Assembly: GCA_043739185.1 (NCBI GenBank)
Contig: JAYUEN010000224.1
Location: forward strand, 1-43,536
Direction: 5' to 3'
Source: Bdellovibrionales bacterium
Lineage (GTDB): Bacteria > Bdellovibrionota > Bdellovibrionia > Bdellovibrionales > JAMPXM01
Length of the DNA stretch: 43,536 bases
Shown: piece after piece, positions 1-10,732 of the stretch
How positions within the stretch are numbered: position 1 is the first letter of the stretch
Layout of the letters: every line of letters starts with the position of its first letter
Position numbers and translations under genes: made by a program
Notes under the pieces: model-generated
Told to the model about the DNA's origin: nothing
Databases searched by the model: none
The model's input: only the letters and a program-made list of their open reading frames with translations

Positions 1-1233
1 TTGAAAATATTTTTCATTTTTCTCATCGCGCAAAAAAAATGATAAGTTATCCGCTGAAACTGTCACGCGATTTCGATTCGAGGGACCTGAGCAGTTACCT
101 ATTTTTTTAAAAGCGGCAAAACCATGATCCTTTAAAGAATGCACCTGATTTGTAGTATCCGAAATCGGAGGAGTTTGCAAAAAATCGATTTTGACTCCCC
201 CATTTCCTAGGATAAATTCCGGAGGATACTTTTCATTGAAATTTACAAAGGCCCCAATATGAGTATGCGAGGCTAGGACAGCTTGCAGTGCCCCCGACTT
301 ACTTAAATCTTCTCCGAGCTTGGGTGCTGTTTTTGGATCCACATCGCGACTTTTAGCCAAGAAGGGTCGATGAGTGAGAATCCAACGGAAGGTCACTCCG
401 GCATCTACTAGACTAAATTTCTGCAATTCTGCTCGTAGATGCTCTTCTTGATTTGAATCGATATTAATAAGTTGAAGGCCAGGCAGCTTAACAAGAAATG
501 TCGGGGTCTCTTCGCTACAGTTATTGATAGAGTTATAAGGCGAGGGCGAGAAAAACTGAAACCACTGCTTCCCAAAAGAATTGCAAGATTCGTGATTGCC
601 TCTTACGAAGATAAAGGGAGTCGTTTGCAGAAGTGCCTCCATTGGGATGATTACATCCTCAAGCCATGTTTGCCAACTCGGATGAGTTGACAAACCCTCG
701 CAGCGGGCATCGTTCGGAGCGCAATCGGCATCTCGATAACTATAATCACCTAGGTGAATGGCTACAGTCGGCTTTAAAAGTGCGGCGGCATGACTTAATT
801 TTTCAAGTGGCCACTCATTGGGGTTTTTGCAATTCTGAAAATAAATAGATTTCATTCGGCAACCCGAATCACCTAAAGCAACAATCGCCTCGAGATTCTC
901 ATGCAACACAGGCAAATGCCGTCCTTGTACAATAGCTGACTTAGTATTTTGACTTGCATTCCATTCGCATAAAATTTGACCTTTCTCAATTTCAGAAGTC
1001 CTCAAGGTCATTGTTTGGATTTTTTGATCTACTTCAATTTCAGGGCACGAATCCGAAATACTTATAACCCGAAAACTAATTTGACCATCGGCAATCAATT
1101 GGCTCCAATAATAAAGAATTTGAGCCTCATTGCTTCGTGCTGGATCGCGACTTTTTACCGATTGCTTTATCCTTAATTGTGAACAAGCAAAAAGTGAAAA
1201 GGCCAGAAATGCAGTCCAGATTATCTTTAGCAC
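1..1233 (-). CDS. Calcineurin-like metallophosphoesterase lipoprotein (3' end truncated by the window edge)
   Basis: Not in the ORF track. Hand translation of the minus strand shows an open frame from GTG 1233 (RBS GAGGAG) to base 1. It starts with the lipobox MLKIIWTAFLAFSLFAC and has the ordered motifs ALGDSGCR, IHLGDYSYR, FVRGNHE, WILTHRPF, LASHTH, FILGNGG. Confidence 0.9.
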   Translation of the reverse strand, partial: MLKIIWTAFLAFSLFACSQLRIKQSVKSRDPARSNEAQILYYWSQLIADGQISFRVISISDSCPEIEVDQKIQTMTLRTSEIEKGQILCEWNASQNTKSAIVQGRHLPVLHENLEAIVALGDSGCRMKSIYFQNCKNPNEWPLEKLSHAAALLKPTVAIHLGDYSYRDADCAPNDARCEGLSTHPSWQTWLEDVIIPMEALLQTTPFIFVRGNHESCNSFGKQWFQFFSPSPYNSINNCSEETPTFLVKLPGLQLINIDSNQEEHLRAELQKFSLVDAGVTFRWILTHRPFLAKSRDVDPKTAPKLGEDLSKSGALQAVLASHTHIGAFVNFNEKYPPEFILGNGGVKIDFLQTPPISDTTNQVHSLKDHGFAAFKKIGNCSGPSNRNRVTVSADNLSFFLRDEKNEKYFQ

Positions 1234-1312: not shown

Positions 1313-1338
1313 AAAAAAAAGGCCCTTTTATCAGGGCC
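1313..1338 (-). terminator. Intrinsic terminator after the lipoprotein gene
   Basis: Minus strand GGCCCT-GATAAA-AGGGCC followed by T8, 8 nt after the stop at 1347. Confidence 0.75.
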
Positions 1339-1346
1339 CCGGACAC

Positions 1347-2519
1347 TTAGAGGCTTGGCGGAATCACGATAGACATTTGGTAAAATACCGAAGGCGCTAT
1401 CCAATTTGCATTGGGCAAAAAGGCTTGGCTAGCAACATTTGGTGAAAGACTATGACAATCCGAATTGAAGGTCACAGTCGAGGTACCACGCTGAACACAG
1501 TATGGATTGCTCATGCCAGCAAGGTAGGCGGCAATCGCAGAAGGTGTCGTAGAACCTGATGTGGCAAGTGCTTGGCAAAGATCAGAATAATTATTGCACA
1601 GGCCATTGAAACCAAAATTTTGAATCGATGCTGTATTGGCTTCTGATCGTTTCATCATATAAAGGGCGGCTTTGGCGGCAATATGATCCGCAACAAAATC
1701 AGTATAGATTGCAAGACCTGTATTATCATTTGGAATCAAGCTGCAAGTTTTAGTGGTCGCTAAGGCTCCTGCAATTCCATTGTAAAACATCGACTGACCA
1801 CTCCACATATCAGCATTTCGAGTTACTGAAATTCGGGCTGAAGTCGGATCATCTGGCTTCTTCACATTGCAACTCATATCGGTAACTGTGATTTGTGAAT
1901 GCCAGTGTGTGATATCTGTAAAGTTAACTTGAATATCAAGTTTTCCGCCACGACTCCCTGGCTTTCCTTGATCGAGTACTCCGGCATCTAACTGAATATC
2001 ATACAATGTTGGGCTTGCCGAAACTCTACCGACAGGAATATTTCCAGAAAGTATGAGAAAGTCATAATCAAGTAGAGATCTTTTTTTGTATTGAATAGTT
2101 AAATTCTTATCCGGAATTTGCACCGTACCTGATGAATTATTTGGTGTCTGAGCTAGATCTTGCGCCACTTGCTCAACCATCTGCTCAGTTAAAAAGACGG
2201 CAGCTTGACCAAAAAGAAGATAGGCTCGAATCAGTCTGGGCTGACAAGCGGTGAAGTCTAAACCTGCGCAAATATCCTTGCTTCCGTCTGAAGAAATCGC
2301 AGATGAAGCAGGAGCACCGGCTGCTGCGGTTTGGTTTTTGTCTCCGTTATCCTTGATTGACTCAGGGACATAGTCATTTTGTACGGCTTTTAAATTGGCA
2401 GAAACTACCGACATAGCAGCATTGTTATTTGCGCTGTCATCTAATTTCGAATCGCAGCCAAAAAACAATCCCGACATCAAAAACGTAAGACACATTTTAT
2501 TAAAATTCTTGATCAACAT
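1347..2519 (-). CDS. Uncharacterised Cys-containing lipoprotein, probable ECF target
   Basis: 390-aa ORF, RBS AGGAGG, lipobox LFFGC, multiple Cys; no family recognised. Confidence 0.85.
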   Translation of the reverse strand: MLIKNFNKMCLTFLMSGLFFGCDSKLDDSANNNAAMSVVSANLKAVQNDYVPESIKDNGDKNQTAAAGAPASSAISSDGSKDICAGLDFTACQPRLIRAYLLFGQAAVFLTEQMVEQVAQDLAQTPNNSSGTVQIPDKNLTIQYKKRSLLDYDFLILSGNIPVGRVSASPTLYDIQLDAGVLDQGKPGSRGGKLDIQVNFTDITHWHSQITVTDMSCNVKKPDDPTSARISVTRNADMWSGQSMFYNGIAGALATTKTCSLIPNDNTGLAIYTDFVADHIAAKAALYMMKRSEANTASIQNFGFNGLCNNYSDLCQALATSGSTTPSAIAAYLAGMSNPYCVQRGTSTVTFNSDCHSLSPNVASQAFLPNANWIAPSVFYQMSIVIPPSL

Positions 2520-2542
2520 AAATACCTCCTATTTATTACTCC

Positions 2543-2573
2543 ATAAACGAATTGAGCCCGTAATTTGTGCCAA
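2543..2573 (-). promoter_or_regulatory. Putative ECF-sigma promoter for the lipoprotein
   Basis: Minus strand TTGGCACAAA-N14-CGTTTAT; same architecture as the + strand copy at 2639-2669. Confidence 0.7.
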
Positions 2574-2638
2574 AAATATTATGACGCAACATATTGAGAT
2601 CACTGTGCTTTTAAGAAATAGCTTTTTTTATTAGAAAA

Positions 2639-2669
2639 TTGGCACAAACTAACTGGATAAGACGTTCAT
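2639..2669 (+). promoter_or_regulatory. Putative autoregulatory ECF-sigma promoter
   Basis: TTGGCACAAA-N14-CGTTCAT upstream of the sigma gene; a CGT -10 core is typical of ECF promoters. Confidence 0.7.
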
Positions 2670-2743
2670 AAGTTAGACAGACCCAAGAACATCTTTTAGA
2701 CGTCGGCAAATTTGATTAATACATTATATAGAGGTGCTCTTGA

Positions 2744-3262
2744 TTGGATGATGGAGAGATTGACTGCGGAAATGAAAGGACCATTCATATGCTTTATTTA
2801 AAGCTTGCGCGTCCCGCTTTGGGAAAGACCATGAATCTTGTCAATTCATCTGCGGCTGAAGAAATCCTTCAAGAGGTATTCACCAAGCTTTGGCATAATA
2901 AAATGAAATTTCCCAATATAAAAAGTGCATATGCATTTGTATATAAATGCTGTACCAATGCCGCCATCGATTATATGAGAAATCGCAATCATTCGCATTC
3001 AGTCCTCGATGATGAAATCAAGAGTTCGTCAATCTCCCCGGATGATCTTGAACAAAAAATGCTGATTCGAGATCTTTGGGCAAAAACCGTAAAACTCCTC
3101 ACTGCGGACGAAGCAGCTCTTTTTATTTATCGGCAAATAGAGGGGCTTAGCCAAGATGAAGTCGCAGAAGTCATGCACATATCTAGAAGATCCGTCAATC
3201 GTCTGCAAGAAAAACTCGATTTCAAACTTGAGAAAATAAGGAGTATAAATCATGTCGGATGA
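2744..3262 (+). CDS. ECF-type RNA polymerase sigma factor
   Basis: Region 2 (AEEILQEVFTKLW...NAAIDYMR) and region 4 HTH (EGLSQDEVAEVMHISRRSVNR); RBS GAGGTG. Confidence 0.92.
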   Translation: MDDGEIDCGNERTIHMLYLKLARPALGKTMNLVNSSAAEEILQEVFTKLWHNKMKFPNIKSAYAFVYKCCTNAAIDYMRNRNHSHSVLDDEIKSSSISPDDLEQKMLIRDLWAKTVKLLTADEAALFIYRQIEGLSQDEVAEVMHISRRSVNRLQEKLDFKLEKIRSINHVG

Positions 3263-3935
3263 CTCACTTTTCTCAAAACATTTACGAATCATTTCGGAGG
3301 ATCCTCAAACTTGGTCACCTGAAGTTCGCAAAGAATCTGAATATTTGCAAAGTCTAAGATTGCCTGAACTTGAATTAAAAACCTCATGGAGAATGAAGTT
3401 CAAAAGTGAAATACAATTAAGTCTTGGCGCTTTGCTTATGGCTTCTTTTGCACTCATTTTCTTTTTACCTCGCCATGAAATCTTAACGCCAAAGGGAGCC
3501 TTTCAAGTCTCGGTTTTCGTAGAACATGAAGGCAAGCTTTCTCCTTTAAAATCAGAAAGCCTATTAAAAGATGGCGACAAAGTCGCGGCAAGTGTTAACA
3601 GTGCTGAAGATTCTTATGCTTACTGGGCTATAACTGATCACCAGCTCAAAGTCTTAACGCCAAAAGAAGATATCGAATCGAGTCGTCTATTTTTACCCGC
3701 AGGGGTTTCAAAATCTTTTGAGTCAAGTTTTGTATTGGTCGCGCCCAATCAAGGCGAGCATTTGGTTGTGGTGGTTTGTCCGAAGTCTGAAAATAAAACG
3801 CCTGAGAAATCGGATTCGAAAAAACCCATTGATTCACTCTTTAATCATGATTTTGTTACTCAACTTCAAGCTGGCGGCCCATTGCAATCAAGCCAATGTA
3901 TTTTCGTTGGGTATCGCCTGAGGAGGCTACCGTGA
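3252..3935 (+). CDS. Putative single-pass membrane anti-sigma factor with a DUF4384-like extracytoplasmic domain
   Basis: Overlaps the sigma stop, RBS AGGAG. Short N-terminal domain, TM LGALLMASFALIFFL, then TPKG and a beta-rich domain (LKDGDKV...GEHLVVVVC). Confidence 0.7.
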   Translation: MSDDSLFSKHLRIISEDPQTWSPEVRKESEYLQSLRLPELELKTSWRMKFKSEIQLSLGALLMASFALIFFLPRHEILTPKGAFQVSVFVEHEGKLSPLKSESLLKDGDKVAASVNSAEDSYAYWAITDHQLKVLTPKEDIESSRLFLPAGVSKSFESSFVLVAPNQGEHLVVVVCPKSENKTPEKSDSKKPIDSLFNHDFVTQLQAGGPLQSSQCIFVGYRLRRLP

Positions 3936-5476
3936 ACTTAAGAATTTGCGGCTTCACTCTAGTTTATTTATTGAATAATTCATTGGCTTTTTTCTTTGCT
4001 TTTTTTCTGGGCTCGCCCTTAGCCTTAAGCGAATCCAATTCTGATTTGCAGGCACTCGTAATCAGTGCTGACAATTCTTATATCGCAAGCGAGAAGAGTT
4101 TGGAGTTTGCCTCAAAGGATGCTGAAAGAGTCTCGCGAGCTCTCATCTCAGCTTCAAAGGTTCCAGAAGCAAATATCACCAATTTAAAAAACCCTCAAAT
4201 GATTGAGGTCGACCGAGCCATAAATAAACTTGCAAAAAATCCCTCGCAAAAATTTATGCTTTATTTTTCTGGGCACTCTGACGAAAATGGCTTACATCTC
4301 AAAGATGGCTCTATTACCAAAACGAAATTTCATGAATTGCTTTCGAAAATAAGTGCAAAGGTTAAAATTGTCATTTTAGATAGCTGCTTCTCAGGAGCAC
4401 TAAAGTCAAAAGGTGCCGAAAAAGCAAAGCCCATAGATTTGGTACAATACAATTTTGACGAACCCACGGGAAGTGTTGTACTCACCTCGAGTTCCGGAAC
4501 TGAATTGTCTTATGAAAGCGATCGGCTCAAAGGAAGTATTTTCACCTACCACTTGGTGTCTGGCCTTTACGGACAAGCTGACGCCAACGGAGATGGTGTG
4601 GTGACAATTGATGAACTCTATCAATATGTTTACGCCCAAACAAAATTTCAAAGTATGGTTTCTGGTGGAAAGGTTCAAAGTCCTGAATTTGAATCCAAAC
4701 TAACAGGTCAAGGGGCTTTGGTGGTATCTTATCCGGCGCGAATCAATGGCCAACTTGAACTTGCAAAGCCGGTTCAAGGAGAACTTACTTTGACCGCCTC
4801 TAAAGGAATTAATTTTTTTAAATTTTATAAAAACAAAGATGATCAAAAATTTATAAGCATCCCAAAAGGCCAATACGACGTAACTCTTCTTGAAGAAAGC
4901 CGCATTGGTACCGGCCAAATTGAAATCGAAGAGCATAAGACGCAGTCTCTTAATCCCGACTCATTGGTTTGGCAAAAACGAGATGTGCCCCCGGTTCGCG
5001 CCAAAGGAGCTCAACCTAAATTTTTATTTGGACTTAATATTTCTTCTCACCCCGGCTTTCATGACAATGAACAAAGTGCTGCAATGGCAGAACTCTTTTT
5101 GTTGTCACCCTCGACTGAGGCCCTTTATGGCCGATGGCGACTAGCTGCCTATCTTGGAGGTGAAAGTCACAATCTTCAATATTCCAATCAAAAAGTAGAC
5201 TACAATCGCATGAGTATCGGCGGCGAGGGCAATTATCGCGGTTGGAACCGCTGGAACAACGAGTGGTTAATTGGATTGGCTGTCGGAGTCCTAACTTCAA
5301 ATAATAATTCAAATGATCCTTCAGGTGCATCACTTACGCATTTTCTTATTGGTTCGCGTTTTTATCCCAGTAGTATGAAATTCAATTGGGATATTTTATT
5401 TGGCGTTGATTCTATGAAGAGCGGAAATTCCGAACCACGAAGTGTAAATACATTTGGCTTTGGAATTAGTTTTTAA
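3932..5476 (+). CDS. Exported caspase-family (peptidase C14) protein with EF-hand-like loop and C-terminal beta-barrel-like domain
   Basis: His/Cys dyad YFSGHSD and ILDSCFSG; GSIFTYHL; ADANGDGVVTIDELY; hydrophobic N-terminus; ends FGFGISF. Start moved to GTG 3932 (RBS AGGAGG 3921-3926, GTGA overlap with the upstream stop). Confidence 0.9.
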   Translation: MNLRICGFTLVYLLNNSLAFFFAFFLGSPLALSESNSDLQALVISADNSYIASEKSLEFASKDAERVSRALISASKVPEANITNLKNPQMIEVDRAINKLAKNPSQKFMLYFSGHSDENGLHLKDGSITKTKFHELLSKISAKVKIVILDSCFSGALKSKGAEKAKPIDLVQYNFDEPTGSVVLTSSSGTELSYESDRLKGSIFTYHLVSGLYGQADANGDGVVTIDELYQYVYAQTKFQSMVSGGKVQSPEFESKLTGQGALVVSYPARINGQLELAKPVQGELTLTASKGINFFKFYKNKDDQKFISIPKGQYDVTLLEESRIGTGQIEIEEHKTQSLNPDSLVWQKRDVPPVRAKGAQPKFLFGLNISSHPGFHDNEQSAAMAELFLLSPSTEALYGRWRLAAYLGGESHNLQYSNQKVDYNRMSIGGEGNYRGWNRWNNEWLIGLAVGVLTSNNNSNDPSGASLTHFLIGSRFYPSSMKFNWDILFGVDSMKSGNSEPRSVNTFGFGISF

Positions 5477-5657: not shown

Positions 5658-5695
5658 ATTTTCTATAGGTGAGTTCAACTTCACTGGGAATACAT

Positions 5696-6652
5696 ATGAA
5701 ATATGCACTACTGATCATCTTCGTAGCCTTGGCGACTTCTTGCAATCCTGTGAGCTTCAAACCGTCCAATCAATCGTCAAATCCTAATGATTTAGCTGGA
5801 CCATCGCCCAGCTCACAACTTCTTTGCCCAGACGGCAGCATCCCACTCTTAGATAGCGCAAATCCATGCCCGACACCTACTCCGACACGGACACCTACGC
5901 CTACACCTACTCCTACTCCGACACCAACTCCTACTCCGACACCAACTCCTACGCCTACATCTACTCCTACGCCTACTCCTACTCCTACGCCGACTCCTAC
6001 GCCGACACCGACACCTACTCCTACGCCGACACCTACTCCGACGCCGACACCAACTCCTACGCCAACTCCGATTTCGGCGCCACCAATTATAAGTATTGAA
6101 TCCGGCGGGCCATTTTTGGAAGTTGTTTCTTCAGGCTTTGGATATCCTTGGCAATCGAGCGATGGCAGCTGTTGGACTCTAGGTATAGATTATACCAGCT
6201 TCGCGGTTTACCCAATTTGCGAAATGCCAACTGTTTTAATTGCAAATTCAAATAAATACTCAGTACTTTATTTCGATATAAATGAAGTGGGACTCAGTAG
6301 TTTGAATCAAAGTATTTTAGGAGTTTGGATTAATCATGCCAACCTAGCTTTTCAGAATATGAAGTTTCAAGTCGCCGGATTTATATCGAATGATAATATT
6401 GATGGCACTTTAGAAAATCAAATTATGGGCCAAAGATTAGCGTCGATCTTAAATCAATTGGTACATCAGTCTAGTCACAAACAATTGGTAAATGTGAATA
6501 TTGGTATCCGAGGAGTCAACAAATTCAGTTGTCAAATAGATCTCAATCAGATTTCAAATAGTGCTTCAAAATGCTTAAGCCAAAGCAGACATTATCCCCA
6601 GAGCTTCATTTCATCCGGATTTTTTATTGATGAAATTGAAATTAAATGGTGA
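5696..6652 (+). CDS. Lipoprotein with a long Pro-Thr linker
   Basis: [16 protein letters not shown] lipobox from ATG 5696 (track start GTG 5669); about 67-aa (PT)n linker; unknown C-terminal domain. Confidence 0.85.
5870..6070 (+). repeat. Coding hexamer repeat (CCN-ACN)n encoding Pro-Thr
   Basis: About 33 units with variable third positions. Confidence 0.95.
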
Positions 6653-6837: not shown

Positions 6838-8022
6838 ATGAGCGTTAATCAAATTCGTCGCCTAAAGCCAAATGAAATGATCTTCAATGAAAATGACGTG
6901 GGTGAATGCGCCTATCTCATTGAGCGCGGACGAGTTCTGATCTATATCAAAAATAAAAATGATGAAATTCCGTTGAAGGTATTAGATAAAGGCGAAGTCT
7001 TTGGTGAGATGTCCTTGATTGACGGCAGCCCTCGATCCGCGGCATGCCGTGCAATTGATGATGTGCAACTCTTGATTGTAACCAAAACTCAACTCACAGA
7101 TCGAATTGTTGCCGCTGATCCAGTTGTGCGACTATTGATGCAAGCACTTCTTGAACGTTTACGAGCACAAAACGATCGCCTGCGCGGAAAGATTTCTTCA
7201 CACTCAATCCCGTCAATTGAAACTTTGACTGCAGAAAAAAAGGCCGCGGTTGAAAGAATCGGATTAGAAAACCGCATTGCTCAAGGAATTGAAGACAAAG
7301 AATTCATACCATTTTATCAACCCATTTATGATTTAAATACTTGCGAAGTCCGAGGCTGCGAAGCCCTCCTCAGATGGCTTACCAAAGATCGTGGCATCGT
7401 CTCCCCAGCAGTTTTTATGGATATTATGGAGGACTCTTCGCTCATCTTAGATGCCGGCAAGGCAGTAATTGAAGACAGTGCCGCCGACCTTGATAAAATG
7501 TTAAGTCACTTTGGAGCAGATTTTTTTGTGAGCGTGAATGTGAGCGGACGTCAATTTATGACCCCTGACTTTATTGATCATCTAAAAGCTACCTGCGAAC
7601 GCTTCAAAGTATCGCCCTATCAAATTAAGCTTGAGCTTACAGAACGCATAATGACCGAAGGAAAAAATGTTTTAAATACCTTGCACGAATGTCGTGCCTT
7701 AGGTTTTCAACTTGCAATTGACGATTTTGGAACCGGTTTTTCAAGCCTACAATATCTTGCCAAGATGCCAATCACTCACCTTAAAATTGATCGTGCCTTT
7801 GTCATGAATTTATTTACAGACAATAAGAGCCTCGTTGTCGTGAAATCAATTATACATATGGCAAATTTGTTAGGTCTAAAGCTAATTGCAGAGGGAATTG
7901 AAACTCGCGAGCAGCTTAACCTTTTGAGAAGTCTGGGCGTTGATCAGGGCCAAGGATTTCTCTTTTCAAAACCCCTCCCTCTTCAAGATTTCAACCAACT
8001 TGCATTAAAAAGTGCTGCATAA
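6838..8022 (+). CDS. cNMP-binding + EAL c-di-GMP phosphodiesterase
   Basis: GEVFGEMSLIDGSPRSA; EALLRW, SVNVS, LELTER, IDDFGTGFSSL, KID, AEGIE and QG motifs all intact. Confidence 0.93.
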   Translation: MSVNQIRRLKPNEMIFNENDVGECAYLIERGRVLIYIKNKNDEIPLKVLDKGEVFGEMSLIDGSPRSAACRAIDDVQLLIVTKTQLTDRIVAADPVVRLLMQALLERLRAQNDRLRGKISSHSIPSIETLTAEKKAAVERIGLENRIAQGIEDKEFIPFYQPIYDLNTCEVRGCEALLRWLTKDRGIVSPAVFMDIMEDSSLILDAGKAVIEDSAADLDKMLSHFGADFFVSVNVSGRQFMTPDFIDHLKATCERFKVSPYQIKLELTERIMTEGKNVLNTLHECRALGFQLAIDDFGTGFSSLQYLAKMPITHLKIDRAFVMNLFTDNKSLVVVKSIIHMANLLGLKLIAEGIETREQLNLLRSLGVDQGQGFLFSKPLPLQDFNQLALKSAA

Positions 8023-9209: not shown

Positions 9210-10577
9210 CTAAATTATCGTGTCGGTGGGTGGACTTGAGGGCTCAAGTGTAGCACTCAAAGCTTGCCAAATTTTTCTAAAAGGTCCTGCGTTATACGAG
9301 GATTCCATTTTTTTAAGAAAATCTTTGAGATTGAATTTTTCTGCTTCTTGCTCGATTGCATCAATCATATCGTGACCTATGATCATAACGGCTGCAAGCG
9401 GCGCAATTTGACTGGCCCGAATTCCCCTCGGGAAGCCATTGCCATCGGGTCGCTCATGATGCTGCAAAATAATCACATCGACATCACTCGGAATCTCGCT
9501 CATTTCCTTAAGCAATTCCGAACAACGAGCAGGATGATTCTTTACCGCCGTATAACTCTCTGTGCTCAACCTGGTTTTGTAGGACTCAAGCTCTTTCTTA
9601 GTAGAAATTTTTGCTAATTCTACGTTTTGCAAAACCAAATCATGAAACAGCGCTGCCATCGACAACTTTTGAAAAGTTGATTGTGACGGCCAACTCATAT
9701 ATCCAGCTATTGAACAAGCCACATGGGCAAGAAGCACGCTATGAGAAGAAAGATAATTCTTCACCTTGAGTTTTGATAAATCAAGTACCTTTGCAATTTT
9801 AGCACTTTCACCAATTGCTTTTAAGGTCATATCCACATTTAATTTGGCAATTTCTTGAACTTCTTTAGTAAAGCCAATGCGATTAATAAGTTCCGTCACC
9901 ATTTCTTGCGACTCAGAAATTGTACTCCACGATGATGCGCTTTCAGGGGTAATCGCTTCAGACATTTGTTTTAGATCTACTAAAAACTTATTTACAAACT
10001 CTTTTGACTCGGCATTCTTCAAATAAAAGTATTCGACCTTTCGACTGAATAAGTACTTTTCGCAATCTTCTTTGGTGAATTGCGCGCCTTTTCCAAAGAG
10101 TTTTATATATTTCACATTTGATAATCGAATATAGACATCCGACTTTAAAGGCACCACCCGGGGCAAAAGCTGCGTACTGATTCGACAATATTCTTCGCTT
10201 GCCCCTGAGTTTGATGAGGCAGACAAGACGTGAGAAAAATTTTCTTTTATCAAAGAAAGTAATTTGGTGGGCACCTCTTTCATTGAAAGTTGTCCCAGTA
10301 AAATTAAGTCAGGAAAGCTAACAGTTCCGATCGTAGTATCTTCTGAAATGAGAATAATCGGCACCCGTGCAGAGGTCGAAAGCAAAAACCGAAAGAGCTT
10401 ATCCGTGCCTGGTAGCGGAGCCGCAATCAACAAATCAATAGCCCCTTCTTCTAAAAAAACATCAATGACCTCTTGATAGGTTTGAGCCTGAGTAATGTTT
10501 TGTCCAATTTGACTTTCAAGACAAAAACTTAAGATCTCTCTTTGATCGGGCTGGGGATGAAACAACAAAATATTCAT
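9210..10577 (-). CDS. Degenerate receiver domain + HD-GYP-family phosphohydrolase
   Basis: SHS, ALFHD, NHP and HHERPDGNGFPRG motifs; the REC-like N-terminus lacks the canonical acidic residues; ATG 10577 preferred over TTG 10583. Confidence 0.85.
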   Translation of the reverse strand: MNILLFHPQPDQREILSFCLESQIGQNITQAQTYQEVIDVFLEEGAIDLLIAAPLPGTDKLFRFLLSTSARVPIILISEDTTIGTVSFPDLILLGQLSMKEVPTKLLSLIKENFSHVLSASSNSGASEEYCRISTQLLPRVVPLKSDVYIRLSNVKYIKLFGKGAQFTKEDCEKYLFSRKVEYFYLKNAESKEFVNKFLVDLKQMSEAITPESASSWSTISESQEMVTELINRIGFTKEVQEIAKLNVDMTLKAIGESAKIAKVLDLSKLKVKNYLSSHSVLLAHVACSIAGYMSWPSQSTFQKLSMAALFHDLVLQNVELAKISTKKELESYKTRLSTESYTAVKNHPARCSELLKEMSEIPSDVDVIILQHHERPDGNGFPRGIRASQIAPLAAVMIIGHDMIDAIEQEAEKFNLKDFLKKMESSYNAGPFRKIWQALSATLEPSSPPTDTII

Positions 10578-10732
10578 AATCAAAATATCGGATTATTTAA
10601 AGATAAAGTGAAATTTCATAGTGAAAACCACTTCATAATCAAAATCGCCCTCACTCGACTCGACCTAATGCTGCGACAGGAAAGTGCAGGCGGCTTTACT
10701 TGGTCTTTTGAATATGATTTGGGTTTGCCGGT

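Follow-up and report, generated by a model that had tools for sequence, protein, structure and literature searches.

A conserved sigma factor, putative anti-sigma factor and caspase cassette in Bdellovibrionales, with a barrel-anchored C14 protease as candidate site-1 protease acting at Lys-Gly sites

The DNA stretch analyzed here (the window) is the whole contig JAYUEN010000224.1, 43,536 nt long, from a Bdellovibrionales bacterium (assembly GCA_043739185.1; genome of 4.85 Mb, 41.8% GC). Between positions 1347 and 5476 it carries a gene for a sigma factor of the extracytoplasmic function (ECF) type (2744..3262, plus strand; TTG start with GAGGTG upstream), a gene for a putative anti-sigma factor with a transmembrane (TM) helix (3252..3935, plus strand), a C14 protease gene of the caspase type (3932..5476, plus strand) and a divergent lipoprotein gene (1347..2519, minus strand), and the nearest named homologs of the locus proteins are from Bdellovibrionia/Bdellovibrionales. 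The three overlapping genes and the lipoprotein described in an earlier note on this DNA were all recovered as open reading frames (ORFs) at their places, with an overlap of 11 nt between the sigma and TM genes and of GTGA between the TM and caspase genes. The caspase start is likely GTG 3932, which has AGGAGG 5 nt upstream, and not ATG 3896 of the longest ORF; caspase residue numbers are counted from GTG 3932. On balance, we consider it probable that these genes form a conserved sigma/putative anti-sigma/caspase cassette in which the barrel-anchored caspase would be a dedicated site-1 protease working through cuts at Lys-Gly.

The protease matched PF00656 with an E-value of 9e-15 and is the sole PF00656 match in the genome; a second match of the caspase profile (contig C358, 32118-32717) was discarded as a repeat region only, and PADLOC returned only a weak caspase match. 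Its caspase domain (residues 34-270; 4031..4741) contains the intact dyad that had been claimed previously, His115 (codon 4274-4276) and Cys152 (codon 4385-4387), both of which are invariant in 117/117 aligned sequences. In an AlphaFold2 model built from 27 sequences (mean pLDDT 79, pTM 0.53), an N-terminal helix is followed by the caspase domain, an all-beta domain (residues 272-349; 4745..4978) and eight long strands (residues 365-513), with low-confidence loops at 154-175 and 353-360. The N-terminal helix is hydrophobic and was predicted, by heuristic only, to be a Sec signal peptide of about 32 aa ending in ALS (3932..4027), in agreement with the proposed export; an N-terminal 11-mer with hydropathy of at least 2 was found in 104 of the 117 parsed homologs. 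Structural comparison aligned the caspase domain with caspase-7 (Z 22.1, rmsd 2.6, 197 aligned), and the Foldseek alignment of the protease with MALT1 (437 columns, rmsd 22.6) suggests a caspase plus Ig arrangement for the modeled caspase and all-beta domains.

Residues 361-514 (5012..5473) form in the model an eight-stranded barrel of 154 aa with long strands, pLDDT about 90 and a terminal Phe, which matched the outer-membrane proteins NspA (Z 17.2, rmsd 2.5, 144 aligned), PagL (Z 16.6), OprF (16.0) and OmpA (15.4), soluble avidin-type barrels scoring lower (10-11). The Phe-terminated barrel of the earlier note is thus backed by structure matches, and F or Y is the last residue in 76 of the 117 parsed homologs, some of which are fragments. 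An eight-stranded barrel of this type leaves N-terminal domains in the periplasm and offers no lumen through which a domain could travel. A type Va autotransporter was rejected as an assignment, the barrel having 8 strands and not 12 and the model showing no pre-barrel helix. Caspase forms of 730-790 aa, with a stalk of GxQxGxxN repeats between the predicted release site described below and the barrel, were also observed (L059-L063, L030, L032, L033 and L036-L038), and both the long, stalked type and the short type are present in Bdellovibrionota.

Two acidic residues would shape the S1 pocket of the caspase, judged at sequence level. D150 is invariant and D63 is conserved in at least 90% of sequences, and in a weak match (E 0.25) both pair with acidic residues of metacaspase 4; the predicted pocket is acidic and of Arg/Lys type, fitting a Lys/Arg-Gly motif. 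In PMC5756287, the non-caspase C14 enzymes characterized so far are said to prefer Arg/Lys at P1 owing to an acidic pocket, MaOC1 to require self-processing, and an extra specificity-pocket Cys to support metacaspase activity. The EF-hand-like loop (DANGDGVVTIDE; 4580-4615) adopts a helix-loop-helix in the model, and its D217 and E228 are invariant. The EF-hand-like loop is thus present as claimed earlier, but as an EF-hand it is single and scored 17.6 bits against the Pfam model, below the cut-off of 25.9. It is probably structural, and the sensing of Ca2+ or another ligand that had been attributed to the protease gained no support, the loop being conserved with nothing pointing to sensing.

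The putative anti-sigma factor (227 aa) consists of a cytoplasmic part of 53 aa, one TM helix (residues 54-72; 3411..3467; mean hydropathy 2.2) and a DUF4384-like beta domain in the periplasm, which corresponds to the single-TM protein with an external domain reported previously. Encoded at +1 to the sigma gene and combining a single TM helix with a periplasmic C-terminal domain, it has the layout of class I anti-sigma factors. Its cytoplasmic part contains no zinc motif, and weak zf-HC2 matches were obtained for 3 of the 21 relatives scanned. The protein itself gave no match to DUF4384 (PF14326), which was matched by 18 of 60 relatives at E <= 0.01 (best 4e-6), and DUF4384 clusters are found among its neighbors in a protein atlas. 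It is single-copy in the genome, and weak matches in 5 genomes were set aside as longer sigma-linked TM proteins that are alike in the N-terminal part only. At five other loci (L116-L119 and L121), the gene after an ECF sigma gene encodes a TM protein of 700+ aa that is similar, at its N-terminus, to the anti-sigma of the cassette; the 3.3 kb examined there showed no caspase.

The sigma factor (172 aa) matched Pfam sigma70 r2 (PF04542) and r4 (PF08281) above cut-off and TIGR02937 with 65.8 bits (cut-off 42.9). It is short and has sigma2 and sigma4 domains only, so that its earlier assignment as ECF holds; its features are those expected of ECF (group 4) sigma factors, including a bipartite motif upstream, judged by motif conservation only. 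RseP, which has a part in the mechanism considered below, is encoded in the genome (match above cut-off).

A near-invariant Lys/Arg-Gly motif occurs at three places of the cassette, past the TM helix of the putative anti-sigma, past the catalytic Cys of the caspase and before the barrel. The first, K81-G82 (3492..3497), lies 8 residues past the TM helix and is the predicted site-1 cleavage site. KG was found 7-38 residues past the TM helix in 34 of 36 neighbors picked by position (of the other two, one has RG and one is a miscalled ORF), and K81 and G82 account for two of the four invariant columns in 28 anti-sigmas and for two of the three that persist in 60 (12-63% identity). The second, K160-G161 (4409..4414), is a predicted activation cut, and the third, K358-G359 (5003..5008), a predicted release cut; both fall in low-confidence, presumably disordered loops of the model. 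Among the best 120 of 139 caspase homologs, 3 of them unparsed, Lys/Arg-Gly at +8/+9 past the Cys was present in 116 of 117, the single miss being a mis-parse in which the motif is present, as against 402 of 4954 random 15-aa windows (8%) and 0/12 other C14 proteins of the same order. The pre-barrel motif lies 198-209 residues past the Cys in 38/38 full-length cassette caspases, whatever comes next; of the 12 distant C14 proteins that could be parsed, a few of them too short to hold it, 1 has it. This constant position of K358, with a stalk or with none, suggests the release of a fixed caspase-plus-beta unit.

The gene neighborhoods of C14 proteins argue for a conserved triad, as had been anticipated. 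In 55 compared loci (49 plus six more), 43 contained a family caspase (profile E < 1e-40), and these were accompanied by the anti-sigma in 40 cases and by the sigma in 34, every miss being at a contig edge, whereas none of 12 distant C14 loci had either gene; many of these loci had also gone into the anti-sigma and sigma profiles with which the counts were made. Gene order differs in five loci (L021, L022, L025, L027 and L028), in which the three genes nevertheless stay together. At sequence level, what was found is thus a protease with a predicted export signal, a predicted barrel and a conserved triad, and not the cytoplasmic protease, missing barrel or unconserved triad that the earlier note had named as contrary outcomes. 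According to record titles, cassette loci come from Bdellovibrionales, Oligoflexia, Fibrobacter, Spirochaetota and Myxococcota. Their occurrence is patchy: 7/401 genomes of the phylum, a strong anti-sigma match in 12/301 genomes of the order, and 1 of 3 other genomes of the same genus. Tree distances of the three genes correlate at 0.86-0.94 over 29 loci, six near-duplicate or partial loci having been left out, in a comparison made without a host-tree control.

The gap between the lipoprotein and the sigma gene (2520-2743) contains two back-to-back copies of an ECF-type promoter-like motif, TGGCACA-N16-CGTTYA, one facing the lipoprotein (TGGCACA-N16-CGTTTA; 2544..2572, minus strand) and the other facing the sigma operon (TGGCACA-N16-CGTTCA; 2640..2668, plus strand), where it predicts autoregulation. 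In the whole genome the strict pattern occurs only in this gap, and when a matrix derived from relatives only (nine sites) was applied, the two motifs ranked first and second (25.4 and 25.3 bits), the next match scoring 21.5. A shuffle test was performed on 14 lipoprotein-sigma gaps, two of which (L010 and L011) are near-identical, with 200 base shuffles each and the tested locus held out wherever it belonged to the training set; the sigma-facing site scored above all 200 shuffles in 12/14 gaps and the lipoprotein-facing site in 11/14, the remaining sites giving p 0.005-0.045. CGTT at N16 is invariant in 21/21 sites. A sigma-54 reading of TGGCAC was rejected, GG-N10-GC spacing being found in only 2/21 sites, and a sigma-70 promoter scan performed at chance level (11 found vs 9.8 expected). 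In five relatives, 6/7 pattern matches were located at the cassette, which is why the regulon, as judged from these motifs, looks like two units, the own operon and the divergent lipoprotein. The matrix detected no convincing site in more distant cassette clades, so the motif is clade-specific. Weaker matrix candidates were noted in the own genome (G000:C286:904, plus strand, locus L102, 21.5 bits; G000:C287:1777, minus strand, locus L103, 20.5 bits); the ORF that starts shortly downstream of each has an N-terminus of export type, and the two may mark further regulon members. One more candidate was noted in G471.

The lipoprotein has the lipobox FFG-C22, whose Cys is invariant in 6/6 sequences and in at least 90% of 100 members, and 8 more conserved Cys residues. 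It is single-copy in the genome and belongs to an unnamed family of 150 representatives at 50% identity. The query gave no Pfam match and no Pfam family was common to more than 1/100 members; no PDB sequence match was found under E 0.1. Its confident model (pLDDT 86), a 12-strand beta-meander with helices, gave no Foldseek match at E <= 0.001; the best VIA score was Z 8.3 at rmsd 6.5, to generic curved sheets, and the neighbors of the protein in the atlas are unnamed. This absence of a clear structure match does not show a new fold. A separate search with the lipoprotein as query retrieved homologs in 18/301 genomes. Close homologs have a divergent sigma gene beside them in 9/10 cases, the tenth lying at a contig edge with both motifs present; several of these 10 loci repeat loci of the caspase-based set. 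Distant homologs (L085-L091) have no cassette gene in 8-14 kb in 7/7 cases, one of them without upstream DNA, and the motif is absent upstream of 6/6 testable ones (score at most 9 bits), so that the family also has a life of its own, without cassette and motif. Because the twin motifs are the top matches of the genome and are absent upstream of the 6/6 orphan homologs, the lipoprotein is very probably the predicted output of the sigma factor, as the earlier note had proposed. Different predicted lipoproteins stand beside the triad in other clades, and the cargo is therefore exchangeable.

From these elements a mechanism can be proposed. The protease would be exported and inserted through its barrel, the caspase facing the periplasm. 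A trigger at the barrel or in the envelope, plausibly clustering, would lead to the K160 cut in the inter-subunit loop, by analogy with the activation of caspases and orthocaspases, and the K358 cut would then free a constant unit of about 330 residues, comprising the caspase and the beta domain. The freed unit would cut the anti-sigma at K81, with loss of the DUF4384-like domain; RseP and cytoplasmic proteases may then free the sigma factor, as with RseA and DdvA, and transcription from both TGGCACA-N16-CGTT sites would provide positive feedback together with the lipoprotein. The model as first formulated, in which the protease stays in the outer membrane, left a difficulty of reach, since a tethered protease cannot easily get to K81, only 8 residues away from the inner membrane; this problem would be solved because the conserved pre-barrel Lys/Arg-Gly offers release from the barrel. 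A wider claim, that the cassette represents a distinct class of envelope signaling in which the caspase is both receptor and site-1 protease, one Lys-Gly code is read three times, the messenger is diffusible, the switch amplifies itself and a two-unit regulon delivers an exchangeable lipoprotein cargo, is offered tentatively, at somewhat less than an even chance.

Several observations weigh against a site-1 role for the caspase. The position of the extra specificity-pocket Cys is Ala in the cassette caspase. The cytoplasmic part of the anti-sigma is short and lacks the first helices that are present in relatives, and the protein shows a modest likeness to another sigma-linked TM protein (hhalign probability 64.6%). 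K81-G82, at the start of the periplasmic domain, could be a structural or binding motif, and the finding of KG in 120/120 of the best anti-sigma profile matches (of 1009) comes from a biased set, as the profile itself holds KG and the matches are largely near-duplicates of one clade. A looser Lys/Arg-Gly, at +6 to +9 past the Cys, was present in 7/10 parsed distant C14 proteins without a cassette; K160 is therefore lineage-wide, its post-Cys basic-Gly being predicted as a general activation feature, and the substrate case rests on K81 and K358. Finally, the wider cassette does not include this lipoprotein, given the different lipoproteins of other clades.

An alternative is a caspase that signals by contact. 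The Lys-Gly linker and DUF4384-like domain of the anti-sigma would bind the caspase across the envelope as a pseudo-substrate or docking partner, and a change in binding would carry the signal in the way of FecA-FecR. The sigma factor would then be freed by a different protease or through a conformational change. DUF4384 is described in the text available of 10.1101/2022.08.17.504292 as often fused to proteases, which suggests a binding module, PCi both inhibits PCaspase and is its substrate according to that of 10.1101/2023.06.23.546230, and the repeat stalk of long family members, lying between caspase and barrel, could span the periplasm. Even so, we regard contact signaling as unlikely: the catalytic dyad is invariant in 117/117 sequences, the stalkless short forms still keep the pre-barrel basic-Gly, and a P1 Lys followed by Gly would resemble a cleavable rather than a resistant site. 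It is also conceivable, and in our judgment less probable still, that the sigma regulon merely includes the caspase as an output. The protease would then serve in envelope maintenance, maturation or damage, with the lipoprotein or other proteins as substrates, housekeeping proteases removing the anti-sigma and Lys-Gly being structural. The caspase is indeed the last operon gene under the predicted promoter of the sigma factor itself, and the generality of the post-Cys basic-Gly in the lineage agrees with such a role. Against it, K81-G82 outlasts almost all other anti-sigma positions despite the variable spacing of 7-38 aa from the TM helix, no basic-Gly is well conserved in the lipoprotein family (34/100 in the best column), and it is the lipoprotein that is exchanged between clades and not the anti-sigma.

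Surface display or secretion of the caspase by the barrel, in the manner of an autotransporter and against prey, phage or neighbors, with the sigma pair merely controlling expression, appears very improbable. The signal peptide, the domain placed like a passenger, the conserved cut site in the linker and the C-terminal barrel with terminal Phe, as well as the beta-repeat stalks of long forms, recall that architecture; the barrel, however, resembles NspA, OmpA and PagL and not the 12-strand autotransporter type, and surface display leaves the motif shared with an inner-membrane protein unexplained. Site-1 proteolysis by the caspase accordingly remains the reading that we favor, with the reservations listed above.

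In regulated intramembrane proteolysis as established for RseA, DegS acts first and RseP second, a site-1 cut being followed by RseP, sigma release and autoregulation. The predicted logic of the cassette is alike, with the difference that the site-1 enzyme would here be an operon-encoded, outer-membrane-anchored and self-releasing cysteine protease and not an inner-membrane PDZ serine protease. A FecA/FecR/FecI-type system was rejected, the barrel having 154 aa and 8 strands and not the 22 strands of TonB-dependent proteins, and none of 60 anti-sigma members matching FecR. In the DdvS/DdvA system of Myxococcus xanthus, as presented in the partial text of PMC11506125, the CHAT domain of DdvA is proposed to make a site-1-like self-cut, and RseP is shown to act on truncated DdvA. 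An ECF sigma, a single-pass anti-sigma (putative in the cassette), a periplasmic His-Cys domain of caspase fold, a proposed linker cut near the TM helix and RseP are common to both; there, however, the protease (TPR-CHAT) is inside the anti-sigma and the output is CBASS/CRISPR, whereas the cassette has a separate C14 protein with a predicted outer-membrane barrel and, as its predicted output, a lipoprotein, and no TPR or CHAT match was found in the 227-aa anti-sigma. The cassette would thus work like regulated intramembrane proteolysis and is not a member of the DegS/RseA, FecA/FecR, DdvA or autotransporter families.

Caspase-fold proteases that cut a sigma-binding protein or a sigma factor are also reported, in the texts available, for Craspase (Csx29/Csx30/RpoE, where some Csx30 C-terminal domains are DUF4384; 10.1101/2022.08.17.504292) and for SAVED-CHAT/PCaspase/PCi/PCc-sigma (where PCaspase is a C14 protease activated by cleavage; 10.1101/2023.06.23.546230). 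Those systems are linked to CRISPR/CBASS and triggered by RNA or cyclic nucleotides, and no CRISPR/CBASS-type gene was seen among the ten ORFs scanned in 1-10.6 kb of the window. With respect to the promoter, ECF41 comes close to the TGGCACA-N16-CGTT arrangement, with TGTCACA / CGTC and a two-unit regulon of itself and a neighboring gene (PMC7826278, partial text); ECF41 is governed by a fused SnoaL-like extension, whereas the 172-aa sigma factor lacks such an extension and has a TM-protein gene after it. The part of PMC8999054 at hand mentions CHAT neighbors for ECF54 only, and the terms "caspase" and "C14" had 0 matches in the available part of the 2021 ECF classification supplement.

Sigma-protease operons as such have been on record for some time. 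In the available text of Asplund-Samuelsson (2012; PMC3501461), four sigma-70/metacaspase operons are listed for M. xanthus DK1622 and similar ones for Anaeromyxobacter, Haliangium, Sorangium, Ralstonia and Fibrobacter, with no mechanism given. They share with the cassette a sigma gene co-operonic with a C14 protease and overlapping taxa (Myxococcota, Fibrobacter), and probably belong to the same cassette family, judged by their description; that text treats co-occurrence only, without anti-sigma, barrel, cut sites or promoters. No description of a barrel-anchored C14 protease acting on an anti-sigma was found in searches of the open PMC and bioRxiv literature, subscription papers being outside the scope; the system is less unprecedented than had been stated, given the operon type of PMC3501461 and the caspase-fold, site-1-like cut proposed for DdvA in PMC11506125. 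What the analysis adds to the earlier note, at sequence level, is the pair of twin promoter-like motifs and the three-place Lys/Arg-Gly motif in a sigma/anti-sigma/caspase cassette.

To our knowledge, substrates are lacking for most bacterial caspase homologs, and those studied are tied to phage defense or cell death. The cassette provides a named candidate substrate for a bacterial C14 protease, together with cut sites predicted at three residues and a reporter promoter, so that a signaling role other than death is directly testable. In the Bdellovibrionales clade, the twin promoter-like motifs define a predicted regulon and indicate, as its output, a lipoprotein family that is uncharacterized. 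If the proposed mechanism is true, it would be a third route by which a signal at the outer membrane reaches an ECF sigma factor, beside DegS/RseA and TonB-dependent transducers, and would explain the sigma-metacaspase operons of M. xanthus and Fibrobacter noted since 2012 (PMC3501461, partial text).

Some minor observations concern other C14 proteins and the surroundings of the locus. Two distinct Oligoflexia-like cassettes (L024 and L025) were found in one assembly titled Polynucleobacter, pointing to mis-binning or transfer. C14 proteins with a post-Cys Lys-Gly and no anti-sigma or sigma nearby are encoded at L045:5348-6517 and L049:6740-8473, the latter locus having two tandem C14 genes. 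A separate C14 family of about 320 aa, without signal peptide, occurs in the same order (L123-L127, L129, L130, L132 and L135); most of its genes adjoin a small gene of 120-180 aa and the family may be defense-linked. In the window, a terminator-like hairpin with a T-run lies just 3' of the lipoprotein stop (1319..1340, minus strand); it is a consensus match only, in a region where the terminator scan gave 4 hits vs 3.9 expected. Further downstream of the lipoprotein, a gene for a calcineurin-like phosphoesterase (1-1233, minus strand) is truncated by the end of the contig; its product begins like a lipoprotein. On the other side, 190 nt past the caspase, lies the gene of a predicted lipoprotein (5669-6652, plus strand; ATSC lipobox) in which a long linker of Pro-Thr repeats precedes a C-terminal domain that matched nothing in Pfam; it was not seen adjoining the cassette in relatives. 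Two genes of c-di-GMP-type signaling are also close to the cassette, neither of them conserved beside it. One encodes a cNMP-binding/EAL protein (6838-8022, plus strand), the other a protein that has an HD domain and a receiver domain in degenerate form (9210-10583, minus strand).

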